Part shown: piece by piece, positions 3,857 through 63,326 of the stretch
Numbering within the stretch: position 1 is the first letter of the stretch
Layout: each line of letters begins with the position of its first letter
Origin: Patescibacteria group bacterium
Lineage (GTDB): Bacteria; Patescibacteriota; Minisyncoccia; UBA6257; 02-FULL-45-10c
Assembly (NCBI GenBank): GCA_018896875.1
Contig: JAHILT010000006.1
Location: 12,605 to 76,604 of the forward strand
DNA: 64,000 nucleotides
Reading direction: 5' to 3'
Position numbers and translations under genes: made by a program
Notes under the pieces: model-generated
Database searches by the model: none
What the model was told of the DNA's origin: nothing
What the model saw: the letters and a program-made list of their open reading frames with translations, nothing else

Positions 3857-4756
3857 ATGGCACATATTCCTGTTCTTTTAAATGAAGTAATAGAATTACT
3901 AAATCCAAAAAATGGCGAATTCTTTATAGACGGAACTTTTGGCGCTGGTGGTCATTCTAAAAAAATTTTAGAAATGATAGGAGAGAAGGGGCTTCTTCTT
4001 GCATTTGATTGGGACCCTTCGACAGAGCTCAGGGCGAACAAAAAAGTAGAAGAAAGAAATGAGAGTTTTTTGACAAAAAAGAATGTTATATTCGTTAATG
4101 ATAATTTTACGAGAATTAAAGACGTTCTTCAGGAAAAAAAACTACCTAAGGCAGATGGATTGTTATTAGATCTAGGATTTTCTTCTGATCAACTTAGTGA
4201 TTCCGGAAAAGGATTTAGTTTTAAAAAAGATGAACCATTAATAATGTCTTATAGTGAGAATGGATTAACAGCTTATGAAGTAATTAATTCTTATTCAGAA
4301 GAAGACATTGAAGGAATTATTAAGGACTTAGGAGAAGAAAGATTTTCTAAAAGGATTACGAAAGCTATTATAAATAATAGAAAGAAAGAACCTATTAAGA
4401 CTAGTTTTCAGTTAGCAAAAATTATAAGAAATGCTGTTCCCGGGAATTATGAAAGAAGGAGGATTGACCCAGCCACAAGGACATTTCAGGCATTAAGGAT
4501 TTTTATTAATAGCGAATTAGAGAATCTTAAAGCAATTCTTGATGACTTAGAATTAATTTTAAAAAAAGAAGGACGAGTAGTTATTATATCATTTCATTCT
4601 TTAGAAGACAGAATCGTTAAAAATTATTTAAGAAATTTAAAAAATGAAAAAAAGGTCGAACTTTTAACTAGAAAACCCATTATTGCTTCTTGGCAAGAAG
4701 TATCAAGTAATCCGAGAAGCAGATCAGCTAAATTAAGAGGTGCAATATTAATTTAA
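3857..4756 (+). CDS. rsmH: 16S rRNA m4C1402 methyltransferase RsmH
   Basis: HIPVLL, GTFGAGGHS, DLGFSS, FQALRIFIN and SFHSLEDR motifs. Confidence 0.95.
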   Translation: MAHIPVLLNEVIELLNPKNGEFFIDGTFGAGGHSKKILEMIGEKGLLLAFDWDPSTELRANKKVEERNESFLTKKNVIFVNDNFTRIKDVLQEKKLPKADGLLLDLGFSSDQLSDSGKGFSFKKDEPLIMSYSENGLTAYEVINSYSEEDIEGIIKDLGEERFSKRITKAIINNRKKEPIKTSFQLAKIIRNAVPGNYERRRIDPATRTFQALRIFINSELENLKAILDDLELILKKEGRVVIISFHSLEDRIVKNYLRNLKNEKKVELLTRKPIIASWQEVSSNPRSRSAKLRGAILI

Positions 4757-15265: not shown

Positions 15266-15751
15266 TTATTTTTTAAAGCGGATAGCTTTTGGCAAGTTGT
15301 ATTTTTTTGAAAGTAGAGCATATTCAAAAATACCCTCTGTTTTTAATTGATTATTTTTTTTGTCTTTTCCGCCGAAGGCGGATCCGCCTTCGGCGGAAAT
15401 TTCTACTTTGATAATTATGCGATTGGTTTTAATTTTTACAAACTTTGCATTTGCTAATAATATTTTATCTTTATTTAAAATAATTGGATGATAAAATTTT
15501 ATTTTTTTTATTTCTGCTAATGGAGTAAAATATTTTGAATGCATCATGGCTACGGCTACTCCAGCGGCGTTTCCGAGTACAACTTGAACTCCGCCAGTTA
15601 TTATTTTGCCTTGAGCGCATTCTTTCATAGTTGAAGGCATTGAGATGACGGCTGAATTGGTATCTAGACTAATTAAAGATATTTGAAACCAATGAACAAA
15701 AGGATGTTTTTTAAACCATTTTTTAACCTCTTTGCTTTTTTTATTGTCCAT
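15266..15751 (-). CDS. PaaI/hotdog-fold thioesterase carrying a 30-bp palindrome in frame
   Basis: NSAVISMP...GKIITGGVQVVLGNAAGVAVAM pattern, typical of PaaI-type thioesterases. Confidence 0.6.
   Translation of the reverse strand: MDNKKSKEVKKWFKKHPFVHWFQISLISLDTNSAVISMPSTMKECAQGKIITGGVQVVLGNAAGVAVAMMHSKYFTPLAEIKKIKFYHPIILNKDKILLANAKFVKIKTNRIIIKVEISAEGGSAFGGKDKKNNQLKTEGIFEYALLSKKYNLPKAIRFKK
15368..15397. repeat. Perfect 30-bp palindrome (two tandem TCCGCC-N4-GGCGGA hairpins) inside a CDS
   Basis: TCCGCCGAAGGCGGATCCGCCTTCGGCGGA equals its own reverse complement. It encodes SAEGGSAFGG on the minus strand. Confidence 0.95.
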
Positions 15752-28703: not shown

Positions 28704-29897
28704 ATGGTAATTAAACAAAAAAAATCTAAGCTTAAGGTGTTTGTAGGAATGTCTGGAGGTGTCGATAGCTCAGTGGCAGCCGCTGTTCTAAAAAAGGACG
28801 GATACAGTGTAATTGGGGTACATTTGAAGTGTTTTAATTTAGATGGTTGCGCCGATAGAGACTTAGAAGACGCTCGTAGGGCAGCGGAGGTTTTGGGTAT
28901 TCCTTTTTATGTTTTTGATTTTGAAAAAGAATATAAAAAGAATGTTATGAAATATATGATTGATGGTTATAGAGATGGGATTACTCCTAATCCTGATGTG
29001 ATGTGTAATAAGGAAATAAAATTTGGATTGTTTTTAGACAAGGCATTAGAAATGGGAGCTGATTATGTAGCGACTGGGCACTATGTAGACTTGAAGCCAA
29101 ATTTCCAATTTCCAATTTCCAATTTCCAAAAAAAATCTAAATTCAAAGCTTTAAAAAACAGAAAACTCACTACCAGCTATTCATTGTTTATCGCTAAAGA
29201 TAAAAACAAAGATCAAAGTTATTTTCTTTGGACTTTGACTCAAAAACAATTGAAACATTGCTTGTTTCCTTTAGGAGATTTAAAAAAACCGGAAGTTAGA
29301 AAAATTGCTCAAAAGTTTAAATTGCTTAATGCTAATAAAAAAGATTCGCAGGGGATTTGTTTTTTGGGAAAAATTGGACTTGAAGATTTTCTTAAAAAAT
29401 ATATAAAATCAAAAAAAGGAAAAATTGTTGATACAGAAGGGAATGAGTTGGGCGAACATGATGGAGTTTATTATTATACGTTAGGACAAAGACATGGACT
29501 GCATTTATGTAAAACTGCTAAAACGCCAGACAATAAACCATACTATGTTGCCGATAAAATTTTGAAAACCAATAGAATAATAGTAGCTCAAGGGAAAAAT
29601 AATCCAGCTTTATTTAAAAAAGAAATTAATTTAATTAATGTCAGTTTAATTAATCCTGCATCCACCATATCCCTTATTCGCGCGAATGGGCGAATGAAGG
29701 TATTAGCTAGAGTTCGTTATAGACAACCGCTCTTTGGGGCTGAATTATTTATAACTAATGTTAAAAAGAATAATTATAAAATGGTTTTCGATAGTCCTCA
29801 AAAATTTATAGCCAAAGGACAGTCGGTTGTATTTTACGAAAGGAGCCCTTCGACAAGCTTAGGATTAAAAATGCTCGGCGGAGGAATTATTAATTAG
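28704..29897 (+). CDS. mnmA: tRNA-specific 2-thiouridylase MnmA, with several repeat-derived insertions
   Basis: PP-loop GMSGGVDSS, NPDVMCN, ATGHY, KDQSYFLW, DSQGICF. Confidence 0.9.
   Translation: MVIKQKKSKLKVFVGMSGGVDSSVAAAVLKKDGYSVIGVHLKCFNLDGCADRDLEDARRAAEVLGIPFYVFDFEKEYKKNVMKYMIDGYRDGITPNPDVMCNKEIKFGLFLDKALEMGADYVATGHYVDLKPNFQFPISNFQKKSKFKALKNRKLTTSYSLFIAKDKNKDQSYFLWTLTQKQLKHCLFPLGDLKKPEVRKIAQKFKLLNANKKDSQGICFLGKIGLEDFLKKYIKSKKGKIVDTEGNELGEHDGVYYYTLGQRHGLHLCKTAKTPDNKPYYVADKILKTNRIIVAQGKNNPALFKKEINLINVSLINPASTISLIRANGRMKVLARVRYRQPLFGAELFITNVKKNNYKMVFDSPQKFIAKGQSVVFYERSPSTSLGLKMLGGGIIN
29101..29128 (+). repeat. Heptanucleotide tandem repeat (ATTTCCA)x4 inside mnmA
   Basis: Counted directly. 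Translated as NFQFPISNFQ within an insertion after the ATGHY motif. Confidence 0.95.
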
Positions 29898-32467: not shown

Positions 32468-32513
32468 GTTTGTTAACTATCAATTTATCAATCGCTAATT
32501 TATACTATTGTTT

Positions 32514-34031
32514 ATGACAACTATTTCAAAATCTAATTATCTTCTTTATAGAGAATGTAAGAAAAATGTTTGGCTTAAAATATATAGGCCAGATATATAT
32601 AAAGAACAATCAAAATTATCTGAATTTGAGGAGGCTATAATAGAAACCGGAAACGAAGTTGAGTTATTAGCGAGAAAACTTTTTCCGACTGGAATTTTGA
32701 TTGAGGGCATAGGAGAGAAAGCACAAGAATTAACCCAACAATATATTGATAAAAAAGAGTCTATCTTATTTCAACCAATTTTCGTTAAGAGTGATTTTTT
32801 AGCAGCGGTTGATGTCTTAGAATACGACAAGCAAATTGGTGGTTATATAATATCCGAAATAAAGGCCACTAATCAGATTAAAGAAAAAAAACATTTTTAC
32901 GACTTGGCTTTTCAAGTTAATTTGCTTAGAAAATTAGATTTGGACGTTAAGAAAATAAAAATAATGCATTTGAATTCTGAATATACGCGTTCAGGAGAAT
33001 TAGACTTAAAAAATCTTTTTTTAATTGAAGATGTAACCGAGTCTGTTGAGAAAATTGTTGATGAGGTAAACGAGGAGATGGATATGGCTTTAGAATATCT
33101 TTCAAGCGACATTGAGCCAGAAGGTCCTTGTAGTTGTCTTTATAAAAGTAGGAATAACCATTGTCCTACTTTTTGCTATTCAAATCCTTGCGTTCCGAAA
33201 TATAGCATTCATGACATAGCTCGTATAGGCAATAGTAAAAAGAAAATTCAACAATTAGTTGATGCTAATATTTTTTGTATTGATGAAATTCCAGAGGATA
33301 TTAAACTTACCGATATTCAAAGAAATCAAGTTGAATCCTTTGTTTTTGATAAGATTATGGTAGAAAAAGAATCAATAGCAAGAGAACTTGAAAATTTAAT
33401 TTTTCCATTATATTTTCTAGATTACGAAACTTGCCCAACAGCAGTTCCTCGTTTTGATAGTTATTCTCCGTATCAGCAAATTCCATTTCAATATTCACTT
33501 CATAAATTAGTGGCACCCATTCGACAGGATCAGGGTGTTCTAGCTAAGCTGGAACATTTTGAATTTTTACATACCAAACCTTCCGATCCGAGCAGGGCAT
33601 TAGCAGAGACACTTCAAGAACACATCGGCAATGTGGGCACGATTATCGTGTGGAATAAAAAATTTGAATGTAAGATGAATAAAGAATTAGCGGAAAGATT
33701 GCCAGAATTTAAATTATTTATGGAATCTATAAATAGTCGAATTTATGATTTAATGGATATTTTTTCCAAACAACATTATGTTCATAAAGATTTTAAAGGG
33801 AGCACTTCAATAAAGCGTGTTTTACCAGTGCTCGCTCCAGAATTATCTTATAAAGATCTTTGTATACAAGAAGGAGGCACTGCGTCTCAGAGTTGGGACA
33901 AAATTGCTCTAAACTCTATTCCTAAAGAAGAAAAAGATAAAATAACTAAAGATTTATTGGCTTATTGTAAATTGGATACTTATGCAATGTATGCAATTTG
34001 GCGAAAAATTAATAATTTGCTAATTAAATAA
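32514..34031 (+). CDS. DUF2779-like protein: Cas4/RecB-type nuclease N-domain plus RNase H-like exonuclease C-domain
   Basis: N-terminal SKSNYLLYRECKKNVWL, Cys cluster CSCLYKSRNNHCPTFC, YFLDYET motif. The start is placed at the ATG at 32514 rather than the TTG at 32508. Confidence 0.55.
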   Translation: MTTISKSNYLLYRECKKNVWLKIYRPDIYKEQSKLSEFEEAIIETGNEVELLARKLFPTGILIEGIGEKAQELTQQYIDKKESILFQPIFVKSDFLAAVDVLEYDKQIGGYIISEIKATNQIKEKKHFYDLAFQVNLLRKLDLDVKKIKIMHLNSEYTRSGELDLKNLFLIEDVTESVEKIVDEVNEEMDMALEYLSSDIEPEGPCSCLYKSRNNHCPTFCYSNPCVPKYSIHDIARIGNSKKKIQQLVDANIFCIDEIPEDIKLTDIQRNQVESFVFDKIMVEKESIARELENLIFPLYFLDYETCPTAVPRFDSYSPYQQIPFQYSLHKLVAPIRQDQGVLAKLEHFEFLHTKPSDPSRALAETLQEHIGNVGTIIVWNKKFECKMNKELAERLPEFKLFMESINSRIYDLMDIFSKQHYVHKDFKGSTSIKRVLPVLAPELSYKDLCIQEGGTASQSWDKIALNSIPKEEKDKITKDLLAYCKLDTYAMYAIWRKINNLLIK

Positions 34032-44028: not shown

Positions 44029-44817
44029 ATGAGAAAAATTAAAAATAAAAAACTCATTCGATCCATTCGACAGGCTCAGGACAGGCAGGCTCAGGGCAAG
44101 ACAAAAATAGCCGTTTTTGATATAGACGGTACGATTTTTAGATCGTCTCTTTTAGTTGAACTAGTTAATTTAATGGTTGAAGATAAGCTTTTTTCAAAAT
44201 CAATAGAAAATGAGATTGAAAAAGATTATCATTCTTGGTTAAATCGTGAAGGAAATTATGATACTTATATAAACAAAGTTGCAGAAGTTTATTTTAAGCG
44301 TGTTGTTGGTTACCGATATAAAGACATAACTAAAGTAAGTAGGAAAGTTATGATAAAACAAAAGCGCAGAGTTTATCGTTTTACAAGAGATTTAGTTAAA
44401 GAATTGAAGGGGAAAGGATATTATTTGATTGCTATATCTGGTTCTCCGGTTTTTATGGTTAAAGATTTTGCTAAGAAAATGGGTTTTGATATAGCTTTTG
44501 GTACTGCGTTAGAAGTTCAAAATGGACTTATGACTGATCGTTTTGTAGCAAGAGATTCTTATAATAAAAAAAGCAAATTGCTTAAAAAAATAGTTAAAGA
44601 TTGTGATATTATTCCTGACTGGAAAAATTCTGTTGCTGTTGGTGATAGCGCCACTGATATTTCTATGCTTGAAATGGTTGGAAAGCCGATTGCTTTTAAT
44701 CCTGACGGAGTATTGGTAAAAACTGCGAAAAAAAATGGCTGGAGGATAGTAACAGAGCGTAAAAACGTAGTTTATGACATTAAAAAATTCGACTTTGTTC
44801 ATTATAAAAACCAGTAA
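44029..44817 (+). CDS. HAD-IB family hydrolase (SerB-like) with a repeat-derived N-terminal extension
   Basis: DIDGT motif I, SGSP motif II, GDSATD motif IV. The N-terminal LIRSIRQAQDRQAQGK is encoded by GC-rich repeats at 44054-44100. Confidence 0.75.
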   Translation: MRKIKNKKLIRSIRQAQDRQAQGKTKIAVFDIDGTIFRSSLLVELVNLMVEDKLFSKSIENEIEKDYHSWLNREGNYDTYINKVAEVYFKRVVGYRYKDITKVSRKVMIKQKRRVYRFTRDLVKELKGKGYYLIAISGSPVFMVKDFAKKMGFDIAFGTALEVQNGLMTDRFVARDSYNKKSKLLKKIVKDCDIIPDWKNSVAVGDSATDISMLEMVGKPIAFNPDGVLVKTAKKNGWRIVTERKNVVYDIKKFDFVHYKNQ

Positions 44818-50921: not shown

Positions 50922-52814
50922 TTAATTATTAGGTTTGTTTTCTGAATCTAATTTTTCAATTAATTCTTTCGTAGACATTTCTCCTATCGTTCCTATCCCT
51001 CTTTGTCTAATATTTACTGTTTTATTCTTTTCTTCTTTTTCTCCTACAATTAAGATGTACGGATATTTTTTCATTTCAGCTTCACGAATTTTTTTACCGA
51101 TAGTATTATTAGACAAATCAATCTCTACTCTATACTCTTTTTCAAATAATTGTTTTTGGATTGATTGAGCGTAGTCATTAATATTCTCAGAGATTGGTAA
51201 AATCATTATTTGCGTAGGCGAAAGCCAAAGAGGAAATTTCCCTTCATAATGTTCTATTAATAAACCAATAAATCTTTCAAAGCTTCCAAAGAGAGCCCTA
51301 TGTAATACATAAGGTCTTTCGTTCTCTCCTTTATTATTAATAAAGGTCATATCAAAACGTTTAGGTAAATTGAAATCAAATTGTAGGGTAGAGCATTGCC
51401 ACTCTCGCCCTAATACATCTTTAATTTTAAAGTCTAATTTTGGTCCATAAAAAGCCGCTTCTCCAATTTCTTCTTTAAACTCAAGTTTTTTTTCTTTGGC
51501 TACTTTTCTCAAAATTTTCTCGGTAAATATCCACCCTTTATCATTCCCAGCATATTTAACCTTGTCCTTAGGGTCACGTAAGGAAAGATAAACATTAATA
51601 GAATTAATATCAAAGCCAAAGGACTTAAACATAAATAAAATAAAATCAATAACTTTTTTAAGTTCATCTTCTAATTGGTCTTGTCTACAAATAATATGGG
51701 CATCGTCTTGAGTAAAACCTCGTACTCTAGTTAATCCAGAAAGTTCTCCCTTTTTTTCAAATCTATAAACAGTTCCACATTCAGCCCATCTAAAAGGAAA
51801 TTCTCTGTATGACTTTGGTGTATTTTTATATATTTGAATATGAAACGGACAATTCATTGGTTTGAGCAAGTATTCTTCTGAAGTTTCAGCTTTCTTTTTG
51901 TTCTTTTTTTCTTCCAATGTTTGTCCCGCTTCTAGTGGAGGATACATACTACTACTATAAAATCCCCAGTGACCAGAAGTTTCCCAAAGATTACGATGTC
52001 CAATATGAGGACTCCTCACAAGGTCGTAGCCGTTTTTAAGATGTTCTTTGTACCAAAAAGCTTCAATTATTCTCCAAAGAATTGCGCCCTTAGGATGCCA
52101 AAGTGGCAAGCCAAGTCCTACTTTTTCATCAATATGGAATAAATCTAATTCTTTTCCTAGTTTTCTATGGTCTCTCTTTTTTGCTTCTTCTAAGAGGTGG
52201 AGATAATCTTTTAATTCCTTCTTGCTATCAAAAGCTATTCCATAAATTCTAGTGAGCATAGGATTTTTTTCACTTCCTTTCCAATAAGCTCCAGCTATGT
52301 GAGTAAGCTTAAAAGAATCAAATCCGATTTCTTTGGTATTTTTTACATGAGGGCCCTTACAGAGATCAGTAAAAATGTCTCCGGTATCATAAATATGAAT
52401 AGGAGCTTTTTCTTTTTGTAATTCTTTAATAAGTTCTAATTTAAATTTTTGATTACTAAATATTTTTTTAGCTTTTAACGGAGTGATTTTTTCGCTTTTA
52501 AAATCTATTCTTTTATTAATAAAAGAACGCATTTCTTTTTCCAGCATCGGCAAATCTAATTCGCCGATCGCTGACCCCGCTGACTTTGGCTGACCCCGCT
52601 GACTTATTTTTTGTCCGCGAAGTCCGCTTTTGTCCGCGGAGTCTGCACTAAAGAGGAAGTCATAATAAAAACCGTTTTCTATAGTTGGTCCTATACCTAA
52701 TTTTGTTTTAGGATATTTTTTGAGAACAGCCGCAGCCAAAAGATGGGCTAGCGAATGTCTAGCCTTATCTATACTAGCTTGTTTTAATTCTTCTGAATTG
52801 GTTTGTTTGCTCAT
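50922..52814 (-). CDS. thrS: Threonine--tRNA ligase, carrying a ~30-aa repeat-derived insertion
   Basis: RHSLAHLLA editing-domain motif, class II core (FRWAECGTVYRFE, GFTQDDAH, HRALFGSFERF), anticodon-binding C-terminus. Confidence 0.92.
   Translation of the reverse strand: MSKQTNSEELKQASIDKARHSLAHLLAAAVLKKYPKTKLGIGPTIENGFYYDFLFSADSADKSGLRGQKISQRGQPKSAGSAIGELDLPMLEKEMRSFINKRIDFKSEKITPLKAKKIFSNQKFKLELIKELQKEKAPIHIYDTGDIFTDLCKGPHVKNTKEIGFDSFKLTHIAGAYWKGSEKNPMLTRIYGIAFDSKKELKDYLHLLEEAKKRDHRKLGKELDLFHIDEKVGLGLPLWHPKGAILWRIIEAFWYKEHLKNGYDLVRSPHIGHRNLWETSGHWGFYSSSMYPPLEAGQTLEEKKNKKKAETSEEYLLKPMNCPFHIQIYKNTPKSYREFPFRWAECGTVYRFEKKGELSGLTRVRGFTQDDAHIICRQDQLEDELKKVIDFILFMFKSFGFDINSINVYLSLRDPKDKVKYAGNDKGWIFTEKILRKVAKEKKLEFKEEIGEAAFYGPKLDFKIKDVLGREWQCSTLQFDFNLPKRFDMTFINNKGENERPYVLHRALFGSFERFIGLLIEHYEGKFPLWLSPTQIMILPISENINDYAQSIQKQLFEKEYRVEIDLSNNTIGKKIREAEMKKYPYILIVGEKEEKNKTVNIRQRGIGTIGEMSTKELIEKLDSENKPNN
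52566..52648. repeat. GC-rich composite repeat inside thrS
   Basis: GCTGACCCCGCTGACTT x2 (52570-52586 and 52589-52605), then GTCCGCG, AGTCCGC, GTCCGCG and AGTCTGC units at 52613-52646. Confidence 0.9.
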
Positions 52815-61285: not shown

Positions 61286-61448
61286 ATGGATTCAATTGAA
61301 TTAAGAAAGAAACCAGAGCACATAAATTTTATTTATGTGCTCGGTCGAGCCCATAGTGTTTTACACTATGTGCTTATATAATTTAATAACTAATTTTATT
61401 AAACTATTTAATATAACAAATATGACATCTATTGAATTAAGAAAGAAA
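61286..61448 (+). repeat. Duplicated alaS 5' end flanking a 118-nt hairpin-bearing insert
   Basis: ATTGAATTAAGAAAGAAA at 61295-61312 and 61431-61448, each 9 nt after an ATG (61286 and 61422). Insert hairpins are GAGCACATAAA-TTTTA-TTTATGTGCTC and CATAGTGT-TTT-ACACTATG. Confidence 0.85.
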
Positions 61449-63326
61449 TTTTTAAATTTTTTCAAGGATAGAAATCATACAGTTGTTTCGTCTTCTTCTT
61501 TGGTGCCGAATGATTCTTCGGTGCTTTTGACAACTGCTGGAATGCAACAATTTAAACCGTATTATACAGGCAAGGTTGATCCAATAAGAGATTTTGGTAG
61601 TAAGAGCACGGTTTCAATTCAGAAATGTTTTAGAACTTCTGATATTGAAGAAGTAGGAGACGACACACATCTTTCATTCTTTGAAATGTTTGGCAATTTT
61701 TCTTTTGGTGATTATTTTAAAAAAGAAGCAATCCATTATGCTTATAAATTTGTGGTTGAAGAACTTGGAATTGAAAGAAATAGAATTTACGTAACAATTT
61801 TTGCTGGTGATAATTCTGTCTCTGGAGACGAAGAATCTTTTAAAATTTGGAACGAAGAAATTGGGTTGCCTAAAAAACAGATAAAACGAAGAGGTCGCTC
61901 GGACAATTGGTGGGGACCAACTGGCAGCGAAGGTCCTTGTGGTCCAACTACAGAAATTTATGTTGCCAAAAATTTAGATGACGCAAGATTAGGCAATGGG
62001 TTAGAAATATGGAATATTGTTTTTAATGAATATTATCAGAACAAAAAAGGAGATTTTGATAAATTAGAAATACCGGGAATTGATACGGGAATGGGTTTGG
62101 AGAGATTAGCTGTTATGACACAGGGAGCTAATAATATTTTTGAAACAGATTTATTCATTCCTATAATAAGGCAAATTAAAGAAGTGAGTAATGGATTAGA
62201 ACCCCGAATTATAAGAATTTTGGCCGACCACATTCGCTCATCTATTTTTTTAATTGCTGATGGTGTTAGACCGTCAAACAAAGAAACAGGCTATATTTTA
62301 AGAAGATTTTTAAGAAAAGTTATAGTTTATGGTTCTAAATACGATATTCATGCTGATTTATTTCCAGTTGTTTTAGAGAGGGTCGCTGAAATTTTTGGAG
62401 AAATTTATCCAGACCTAAAAAATAAGGAAGAAATTTTGAATGTTTATTATGAAGAAAAGGGGAAATTCAATAAAGCGCTAAGCAATGGATTAAAAATTTT
62501 TAATGATTTTGTTTTACGAATAAAACCAGAAAACTCAATACATAAATTACAAAAAATTTTAGGTATTGGTCGTTTTCAAAATATATTTCATGGCAAAGAA
62601 GCTTTCTCTCTTTATGAAACCTATGGGCTTCCTAAGGAATTAATACAAGAATTTTGCGAAGAAAAAGGGATTGTTTTTGACGAAAAAGGCTTTGATGAAG
62701 AATACAAGAAGCATCAAGAAGTTTCTCGGGCTGGATCTGAGAAGAAATTTGGCGGACATGGTTTAGTTTTGGATACAGGAGAATTAAAAGCTGGATCTCA
62801 GGAAGATTCAGAAAAAGTTATTAAATTACATACTGCTACTCATTTACTTCAGCAAGCGTTACGTAATGTCTTGGGTAATGATGTTAAACAAATGGGGTCA
62901 GATATTAATTCCGAAAGAGGAAGATTTGATTTTTCTTTTAATAGAAAACTCACGGAAGAAGAAATTGAGAAAGTAGAGGAAGAAATAAATGAAATAATAA
63001 ACAAAGACCTTCCAGTTTATTATAAAGAAATGTCTATAGAAGAAGCTAAAGAAACAGGAGCGCTTTATTTCTTTAAGGAAAAATACCCCAATAAAGTACG
63101 AGTGTACTTTATTGGCCCGAAAGATGGCTTTCCTTCGACAAGCTCCCGCCCAGCAGAGCTGGGCGAGGCTCGCCCCAAAGGGGTGGCAGGACGTGCTTAT
63201 AGCGTAGAATTTTGCGGAGGACCACACGTAGAGAACACTCTTAAAGTTGGAAAGTTCAAAATACAAAAACAAGAATCTGTTGGGGCAGGGGTAAGAAGAA
63301 TTAAGTTTGGAGTGATTACTGCTTGA
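61422..63326 (+). CDS. alaS: Alanine--tRNA ligase, short form (no C-Ala domain) with a GC-rich in-frame insertion
   Basis: N-terminus MTSIELRKKFLNFFKDRNH, FFEMFGNFSFGDYFK, editing-site HTATHLL and CGGPHV. The start is placed at 61422. The track start at 61335 reads through the insert. Confidence 0.9.
   Translation: MTSIELRKKFLNFFKDRNHTVVSSSSLVPNDSSVLLTTAGMQQFKPYYTGKVDPIRDFGSKSTVSIQKCFRTSDIEEVGDDTHLSFFEMFGNFSFGDYFKKEAIHYAYKFVVEELGIERNRIYVTIFAGDNSVSGDEESFKIWNEEIGLPKKQIKRRGRSDNWWGPTGSEGPCGPTTEIYVAKNLDDARLGNGLEIWNIVFNEYYQNKKGDFDKLEIPGIDTGMGLERLAVMTQGANNIFETDLFIPIIRQIKEVSNGLEPRIIRILADHIRSSIFLIADGVRPSNKETGYILRRFLRKVIVYGSKYDIHADLFPVVLERVAEIFGEIYPDLKNKEEILNVYYEEKGKFNKALSNGLKIFNDFVLRIKPENSIHKLQKILGIGRFQNIFHGKEAFSLYETYGLPKELIQEFCEEKGIVFDEKGFDEEYKKHQEVSRAGSEKKFGGHGLVLDTGELKAGSQEDSEKVIKLHTATHLLQQALRNVLGNDVKQMGSDINSERGRFDFSFNRKLTEEEIEKVEEEINEIINKDLPVYYKEMSIEEAKETGALYFFKEKYPNKVRVYFIGPKDGFPSTSSRPAELGEARPKGVAGRAYSVEFCGGPHVENTLKVGKFKIQKQESVGAGVRRIKFGVITA
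63126..63197. repeat. GC-rich palindromic module inside alaS
   Basis: Contains CCTTCGACAAGCT (also at 29847-29859), CCCAGC-AGA-GCTGGG, and GGGCGAGGCTCGCCC (compare GGGCGGGAGGCTCGCCC in cysS at 12728-12744). Confidence 0.85.

Follow-up and report, generated by a model that had tools for sequence, protein, structure and literature searches.

Introduction

The GC clusters of yeast mitochondrial DNA and the fungal double-hairpin elements are palindromic sequences of 30-50 nucleotides (nt) or more, GC-rich within an AT-rich organelle genome. The small dispersed repeats (SDRs) of heterocyst-forming cyanobacteria, attributed to Elhai et al. 2008, are reportedly about 20-30 nt long, non-coding, scattered and nested, and are said to be confined to a narrow cyanobacterial group. 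Rickettsia palindromic elements (RPEs) are known for in-frame insertion into unrelated genes (PMC10969869). Here we report on a module with the core TTCGACARG, found in a stretch of 64,000 nt (the window) from a member of the Patescibacteria group (GenBank assembly GCA_018896875.1, contig JAHILT010000006.1, positions 12,605 to 76,604 of the forward strand), where it lies within mnmA, alaS, rsmH and the genes for a DUF2779 protein and a HAD-family hydrolase. We consider it probable that this module represents the core of a dispersed DNA repeat that is GC-rich, non-autonomous and very short, with a unit of about 24 nt.

The module shares with RPEs that it is non-autonomous, that it stands in frame in unrelated housekeeping genes of a small AT-rich genome, that its translation adds peptide segments with which the protein can still function, and that it occurs in non-coding DNA as well. 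Unlike RPEs, which are about 150 bp long, palindromic, restricted to Rickettsia and marked by a conserved peptide in each family, it is about 24 nt long (six times shorter), non-palindromic, read in four frames and tied to no single peptide, and its core is found across phyla. In-frame translated insertion is thus common to both, while the 100-150-bp palindrome with a family-specific peptide is missing here. In size, nesting and lack of coding capacity the module comes closest to SDRs: a unit of about 20-30 nt, dispersal through coding and non-coding DNA and nesting with other repeats are all found, and it is the sequence and the host group that differ. By description it also resembles the mitochondrial GC clusters, as short GC-rich modules of an AT-rich genome that occasionally stand in frame in genes and are nested or clustered. 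The module is RPE- or SDR-like selfish DNA in genes, distinct in its small whole-codon unit and wide phylogenetic spread. A literature search found no published description of it: none of four DNA strings occurred in any paper of the library searched, the papers on FDKLR were unrelated, and none was found that joins Patescibacteria, or the Candidate Phyla Radiation (CPR), with such elements.

Results

One repeat family in the window and its genome

The assembly that holds the window is a metagenome-assembled genome (MAG) of 789,834 bases in 89 contigs, with 31.6% GC and an estimated contamination of 5%. In what follows, G000 is the window's genome, other G-numbers are related genomes, L-numbers their loci and C-numbers contigs. 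TTCGACARG matches the window four times, each time on the + strand (29849, 33520, 44066 and 63134), against an average expectation of 0.44; none of 100 dinucleotide-preserving shuffles gave four matches. The original prediction, made from the letters of the window, had placed TTCGACA[A/G]G in mnmA, alaS, the DUF2779 gene and the HAD gene, and this is borne out well beyond chance; the host identities it gave agree with Pfam. Its inventory of four sites is correct as far as it goes, but a fifth copy, in rsmH, had been missed (Table 1). The two longer strings it reported, CCTTCGACAAGCT (29847-29859 and 63132-63144) and CCATTCGACAGGMTCAGG (33517-33534 and 44063-44080), are found where they had been placed, with an expected count of 0.00 for each, and it had assigned the right frames, namely PSTS in mnmA and alaS, IRQDQ in the DUF2779 gene and IRQAQ in the HAD gene. 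The module is indeed shared by these genes, but the division into two sub-modules did not hold, for the CCTTCGACAAGCT and CCATTCGACAGG.TCAGG groups are subtypes of one family.

The consensus of this family is CCTTCGACAAGCTCAGGRCAAGCY, with a unit of about 24 nt; over 22-24 nt, it can also be given as CCTTCGACAAGCTCAGGRCAAG. In the genome the nine-mer is embedded in a longer common 22-mer, CCTTCGACAAGCTCAGGACAAG, to which 11 sites correspond with at most 5 mismatches, against 0-1 in shuffled genomes, and variants raise the genome total to about 11-13 copies. The CCATTCG subtype of the DUF2779 gene is found again in relatives, and related genomes hold tandem arrays with a 24-nt period (CCTTCGACAAGCTCAGGGCAAGCT). 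It is because of this period, and because the cleanest single insertions measure exactly 24 nt, that we take the unit as about 24 nt. The solo unit is neither a palindrome nor self-complementary. A universal RNA was rejected as its source, since no further match with up to 5 mismatches exists in the genome, the rRNA contig included. A search of the window and of seven module loci from other phyla against Rfam gave no family match to the module and only three tRNAs at gathering score.

Table 1. Module copies, host genes and nested inserts (window coordinates unless a genome and contig are given).
Feature	Position	Strand	Remarks
rsmH module copy (fifth in window)	4016..4039	+	CCTTCGACAGAGCTCAGGGCGAAC, read PSTELRAN; host by Pfam
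Host gene mnmA (tRNA 2-thiouridylase)	28704..29897	+	Pfam tRNA_Me_trans, E = 5.8e-72
mnmA module copy	29847..29867	+	CCTTCGACAAGCTTAGGATTA, 21 nt, read PSTSLGL; turn between ...VVFYE and MLGGG near C-terminus
Host gene, DUF2779 protein	32508..34031	+	Pfam DUF2779, E = 9.6e-43
DUF2779-gene module copy	33519..33542	+	ATTCGACAGGATCAGGGTGTTCTA, read IRQDQGVL; CCATTCG subtype
Host gene, HAD-family hydrolase	44029..44817	+	Pfam HAD, E = 4.2e-17
HAD hydrolase insert, N-terminus	44056..44103	+	48 nt, ATTCGATCCATTCGACAGGCTCAGGACAGGCAGGCTCAGGGCAAGACA, read IRSIRQAQDRQAQGKT
Host gene alaS (alanyl-tRNA synthetase)	61335..63326	+	Pfam tRNA-synt_2c, E = 9.6e-119, plus tRNA_SAD
alaS composite insert	63129..63194	+	read FPSTSSRPAELGEARPKGVAGR
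alaS module, left half	63132-63145	+	CCTTCGACAAGCTC
alaS nested GC-rich insert	63146-63186	+	41 nt, mini-hairpins; then CAGGAC
alaS module, right half	3' of nested 41-nt insert	+	CAGGACGT
Nested insert at GCTC^CAGG	G013:C8		29-30 nt
Nested insert at GCTC^CAGG	G018:C6		CCTGACCGGGCAGG
Nested insert at GCTC^CAGG	G493:C30		

The modules had been called GC-richer than their host genes, and all four inserts concerned exceed the 31.4% GC of the window: the decayed copies of mnmA and the DUF2779 gene reach 43-46%, the HAD insert 56% and the alaS insert 67%. Many further GC-rich families occur genome-wide, such as CTGGCCGGGCAGGCC and TTCCGCCGAAGGCGGATCCGCC, the latter with a copy at about 15364-15400 of the window. 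Outside the window, contig C9 (about 2.3 kb) is very GC-rich throughout and is probably a contaminant in the bin.

Insertion status against orthologues

Comparison with orthologues bears out the proposal that the sites in mnmA, alaS, the DUF2779 gene and the HAD gene are insertions or extensions, the module being missing from orthologues of solved structure and from most relatives. Solved MnmA structures align with a 7-residue gap precisely at PSTSLGL, in the turn ...VVFY-xx-LGGG; most of 30 relatives have no insert and read FYxKxG-EMLGGG, and G023 carries CCTTCGACAAGCTCAGGACTAAAG at the same site. In alaS the insert lies within the tRNA_SAD domain, directly before the CGGPHV motif. The Pfam tRNA_SAD match takes up 69 residues over 43 profile positions, and this region is 18 residues shorter in five genomes of the same genus and 26 shorter in more distant relatives. 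The predicted alaS copy is present, but it is interrupted by a nested 41-nt insert that had gone unnoticed. For the HAD gene, the same-genus genomes G004 and G002 read MxKIKNKK(L/V) and then KIAVFDIDG with nothing between, where the window's genome has 48 additional bases (16 residues) between KKL and KIAVF; these comprise one module with partial internal duplications, and the Pfam HAD domain begins past them. The DUF2779 protein of G003, again of the same genus, is 7 residues short at the module site, and G018 carries CCCATTCGACAAGCTCAGGGCAAGC in the same loop. At the site of the window's rsmH copy, G003 holds CCTTCGACGGGCTCAGGGCAAGCT and further modules.

The cleanest events are seen in relatives. 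The gene for threonyl-tRNA synthetase (ThrRS) of G003 (L497) has a 24-nt insert, CCTTCGACAAGCTCAGGACGACGC, that is absent from G002 (L484), the upstream flanks being identical (CTCATTTCCCTTTATCATAC), and from 28 other relatives. It lies directly before the DLCKGPHV motif, in the loop equivalent to that hit in alanyl-tRNA synthetase (AlaRS), and the window's own ThrRS gene (50922-52814, - strand) is empty there. Similarly, the DUF2779 gene of G005 has a 24-nt insert, TCCTTCGGCAAAGCTCAGGACAAG, between GACAAAGAG and CCGGA, which adjoin in G001. The three clean filled/empty pairs (G003 ThrRS, G005 DUF2779 and HAD) have no target-site duplication, and at the clean insertion sites neither flanking homology nor foreign sequence beside the unit is visible. 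A CC/GG target site was considered, as it occurs in three 'empty' alleles, but it is not found in the clean recent pairs and no target motif is claimed. Among 14 module sites of four other same-genus genomes, G000 is empty at 9, decayed or variant at 4 and filled in the opposite orientation at 1 (TruB).

Reading frames and translation

For the frame survey, 22 genomes of the family supplied 107 distinct copies, which were placed relative to open reading frames (ORFs) of at least 100 residues. Eighty-seven copies (81%) lie inside ORFs. On the same strand as the ORF, the unit is read as PSTSSGQ in 41 copies, as xLRQAQDK in 26 and as PFDKLR in one; on the opposite strand it is read as PELVEG in 13 and as LSLSKG in 6, and not one of the 19 antisense copies uses the frame containing TGA (p about 5e-4). 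No stop occurs in any sense frame of the unit, nor in two of its three antisense frames, and insert lengths are multiples of three. Frame use shows selection on translation. Since the stop frame is unused and the lengths are multiples of three, the copies are translated and not cut from the RNA, and RNA-level removal of the inserts is unlikely. Present-day copies occupy turns, inter-domain loops and the N- or C-termini of proteins, or else follow a stop codon and precede its terminator. Among the 20 copies that no long ORF contains, positions between stop codon and terminator hairpin, or at the extreme start of a gene, are frequent.

One nucleotide unit gives four unrelated peptides, and a protein motif is therefore excluded. 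A domain repeat was likewise rejected: there is no single frame, no conserved peptide and no presence in distant orthologues, which lack these peptides. The original prediction had argued for a DNA- or RNA-level element tolerated in translation, and the several frames, both strands and clean filled/empty sites support this.

The open frames alone do not account for everything. The ratio of same to opposite strand is 68:19 (p = 4e-4 against the 3:2 that open frames predict), and the PFDKLR frame is almost empty (1/68). Selection on the peptide, small hydrophilic residues being tolerated in loops, is a possible cause of these biases, and a strand-specific insertion step is another. The biases (68 to 19 by strand, 41/26/1 by frame) could also be taken to mean that the module is kept as something useful, either as a flexible hydrophilic linker peptide or as a nucleotide signal, and modules at common orthologous sites are indeed nearer the consensus than their flanks, although that comparison is skewed by the way in which the copies were found. 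A retained function of this kind is nevertheless very improbable. The four frames give unrelated peptides, the proteins are unrelated and hit at non-homologous positions, most orthologues, close congeners included, lack the module with no sign of cost, and 0-29 copies per genome are too few for a genome-wide uptake or polarity signal.

In G028, the alaS, mnmA and thrS matches contain in-frame TGA codons (4, 2 and 7, respectively), and this genome may read TGA as a sense codon.

Turnover and nesting

The alaS loop holds the module in sense orientation in G000 and reversed in G022 (TCTGAGCTTGTCGAAGA, read SELVEE). In the TruB loop it is reversed in G000 (contig C19, 19985-20001, PELVEGFE) and in sense orientation in G004 (L262, ILRQTQDE); the loop was either hit twice independently or its module was inverted in place. 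The mnmA turn carries the module in G000 and G023, a degenerate one in G015, and other GC-rich modules in G021 (CCGCCTGCCGGCAGGCAGG) and G006 (GCCGAAGCCTTGGCGAAGGCGGA); the DUF2779 loop carries it in G000, G018 and G005 and different modules in G009 and G014. A second loop of the relatives' mnmA (L025, L026, L014 and L010), between the RYRQPL strand and the next, has lineage-specific inserts of 10-25 residues.

Several copies stand at orthologous sites across genera (for example L252/L312/L170 and L262/L296/L167). Such copies are old, and the present distribution is hence vertical to a considerable extent. The family's history is one of vertical inheritance with decay, together with lineage-specific gains.

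The module has a fixed split point, GCTC^CAGG, which is used in alaS of G000 and, by different inserts, in three other genomes (Table 1). All four nested inserts resemble the module in starting with CC and ending with GG. A longer parent element was considered for the alaS composite and rejected, since the inner 24-mer of the composite occurs only once in 41 genomes and the composite therefore forms no repeat family of its own. Nesting in the reverse sense occurs as well: on genome contigs C2 (9821-9845) and C78 (3073-3114), the module sits in the loop of a ATTCCCGC...GCGGGAAT hairpin, which constitutes a second GC-rich repeat family.

Some relatives hold larger arrangements. Four tandem 24-nt units (PSTSSGQA x4) lie within long ORFs at G027:C1:3896-3989 (L176) and G503:C1:119424-119517, those of G027 just upstream of a GTPase-like motif (ITFIDTPGHEAF) in what is probably IF-2. 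On contig C13 of G013, L249 and L250 contain three composite repeats of 100-155 nt that include the module and have the common core GGGGGATTTCCTCGCCCTTCGACAAGCTCAGGGCAAAATGTCGTAGATACTGAGGAACGAAGTACATTCGAATTAATTCAGGAATA.

Much of this could also be produced by templated repair or gene conversion, in which breaks or gaps are patched from existing GC-rich copies and the in-frame outcomes are kept. Target-site duplications and an encoded or associated enzyme are both missing, as such repair would have it; insert length varies between 18 and 54 nt in many copies; orthologous loops differ in their 5' part and share the 3' GGGCAAGC, which has the look of partial conversion; and some 'empty' alleles retain CC...GG(G)AA(A)GC remnants. 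The cleanest recent events, however, consist of precisely one 24-nt unit with sharp ends, at sites without visible flanking homology; the tandem arrays have the same 24-nt period; and nesting has occurred at the identical internal nucleotide in at least four independent copies. On this evidence we regard templated repair as possible, though less likely than not.

Distribution in the order, the phylum and beyond

With up to 2 mismatches to CCTTCGACARGCTCAGG allowed, the module is found in 33 of 41 genomes of the order, at 0-18 copies each (about 240 hits versus about 9 for a reversed-pattern control). In an evenly sampled set of 301 genomes of the phylum, at up to 1 mismatch, 96 have it, with up to 29 copies and a very patchy distribution between families, while the control gave 2 hits. 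Copies are thus commoner than composition predicts, reversed-pattern controls being near zero, and FDKLR/RQAQ-type sequences in other MAGs do mark the same element, as had been anticipated. That the module arose by chance, or as an artefact of assembly or binning, is scarcely credible. The MAG is admittedly fragmented (89 contigs), with 5% estimated contamination and at least one foreign-looking high-GC contig, but shuffles and reversed patterns yield almost no hits, the inserts keep the frame of long ORFs, copies at orthologous sites recur from one genome of the collection to another, and plasmid sequences recorded from cultured isolates carry the module too.

When one genome per prokaryotic species was scanned, the core turned up in at least 120 loci bearing the labels of many phyla. 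The matches listed include sphingomonads, Burkholderiales, Methylococcales, Chloroflexota, Acidobacteriota and Actinomycetota, as well as cyanobacteria, Planctomycetota, Bacteroidales, Saccharibacteria and others. By our estimate, a pattern of such length could match the cross-phylum collection a few hundred times by chance. The matches found are not due to chance, since their flanks recur: in 135 of the 135 listed, C(C) precedes the core and one of a few recurrent continuations (GAACGG, AGGC, AAGC) follows it. Many of these cores have an inverted partner, with which they make a hairpin, or stand in tandem arrays, inverted pairs being frequent in Proteobacteria. On large sphingomonad plasmids, as many as 15 copies lie unannotated. 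The 19-mer is present in more than 120 IMG/VR contigs, most of which have 50-70% GC, and the GenBank phage records of INPHARED gave no match to the hairpin form.

In the window's order, copies have a 3' continuation of their own, CAGGRCAAG, in place of the proteobacterial CAGGGCGAACGG, and are mostly solo. These two features point to amplification within the lineage and not to import one by one. They bear on the idea that GC-rich repeat fragments of other bacteria, where they form hairpin arms, are scavenged and occasionally integrated. The same core under many phylum labels and in viral or proviral contigs, and a module far GC-richer than the host genome, would agree with such a source. Yet the lineage's own continuation and mostly solo form, the vertical inheritance of many copies and the lack of foreign flanks make imported DNA an improbable explanation.

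The hairpin form was rejected as the rule in the order, inverted pairs being found in only 3 of 41 relatives. Arm pairs of 71-73 nt with unrelated interiors lie at G004:C1:21083-21155 (L331/L333), G010:C2:11525-11597 and G024:C2:172023-172093; that of G004 has a 16-nt direct repeat (TTAGCACTCTAATTGA) on its flanks and itself sits within an apparent terminator hairpin. Miniature inverted-repeat transposable elements (50-500 bp, with terminal inverted repeats and target duplication) were also rejected, as the 24-nt unit has neither feature in the clean pairs and only the three relatives just named have inverted pairs, one of them flanked by a direct repeat.

The module is like repetitive extragenic palindromic (REP) sequences and REPINs (PMC3116915) in that its core recurs in the arms of intergenic hairpins in Proteobacteria; it differs from them in being mostly solo and intragenic and in having no GTAG-type head. 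Mobilization as a REP/REPIN by a REP-associated tyrosine transposase (RAYT) was rejected. The Y1 family PF01797 is absent from G000 and occurs in 13 of 41 relatives with no tie to copy number (a mean of 5.4 module copies with the gene and 4.9 without it), and the module does not flank a Y1-like gene in the nine neighbourhoods inspected. ORFs of about 230-270 residues that match only the C-terminal two-thirds of PF01797 recur across genera (G003, G008, G011, G017, G018, G023, G032, G036 and G040). They could be domesticated or RAYT-like and are not linked to the module.

Discussion

New copies of the module arise in the DNA as one discrete piece, as a rule 24 nt long, and without target-site duplication. 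Because 24 is a multiple of three and only one of the six frames contains a stop, a copy can land in a coding sequence without disrupting it and add about 8 residues. Copies are then inherited vertically and decay, at times expand in tandem with a 24-nt period, and receive further GC-rich modules at the one internal point GCTC^CAGG. Selection would purge copies that break the frame, carry a stop or are disruptively placed, which would explain both the frame statistics and the present locations. On this account, the copies are best seen as selfish or neutral passengers, presumably functionless at individual sites.

As the element encodes nothing, the copying activity must act in trans. Our best guess, held with some reserve, is a sequence- or structure-specific enzyme of the host or of another mobile element, which we favour because the ends of the unit, like the nesting point, recur with single-nucleotide precision. 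Templated repair or conversion from existing copies we rate somewhat lower, on account of the varying length of older copies and of orthologous inserts that have only their 3' part in common, and we leave a smaller share to other routes such as the integration of imported DNA.

Several points weigh against the module being such a repeat. No enzyme that moves the unit was identified, and genomes hold few copies (0-29 each). Older copies of 18, 21, 30, 48 and 54 nt fit imprecise templated repair equally well. Filled/empty pairs cannot formally separate a gain from a precise loss, and at least one 'empty' allele of G000, in a methyltransferase gene, looks like an older copy that was partly deleted. 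In the window's genome the module may move only rarely or no longer at all, and the strand bias and the near-empty PFDKLR frame exceed what the open frames would produce.

More speculatively, the module could belong to a class of ultra-short (14-30 nt) cross-phylum DNA modules moved by an unrecognised trans-acting enzyme. We raise this as a possibility, less likely than not, on account of the CC/GG ends, the precise whole-codon length, the lack of target duplication and the fixed nesting point, and because the core, which stands alone and in frame in genes of Patescibacteria, makes up hairpin arms in Proteobacteria. If that were true, the module would be among the smallest propagating DNA units known, and it would keep supplying the essential proteins of reduced genomes with new surface loops.

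A 24-nt, non-palindromic, duplication-free, cross-phylum unit with a reproducible nesting point fits no transposase, RAYT or intron as currently described, and with a defined consensus and clean filled/empty sites the question of mechanism is a testable one; a member of the Patescibacteria has reportedly been manipulated genetically (PMC10633639). In practical terms, peptides of the FDKLR, STSSGQ, RQAQ, PELVEG and LSLSK types in predicted proteins can be read as one repeat in translation and not as homology, and the inserts should be masked in alignments, trees and structure predictions of CPR housekeeping proteins. The insertion events also provide a natural map of the tolerance of each protein for an 8-residue loop. 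Very small, streamlined genomes still tolerate, gain and lose selfish or neutral DNA within essential genes, among them those for AlaRS, ThrRS, MnmA, RsmH, TruB and IF-2.

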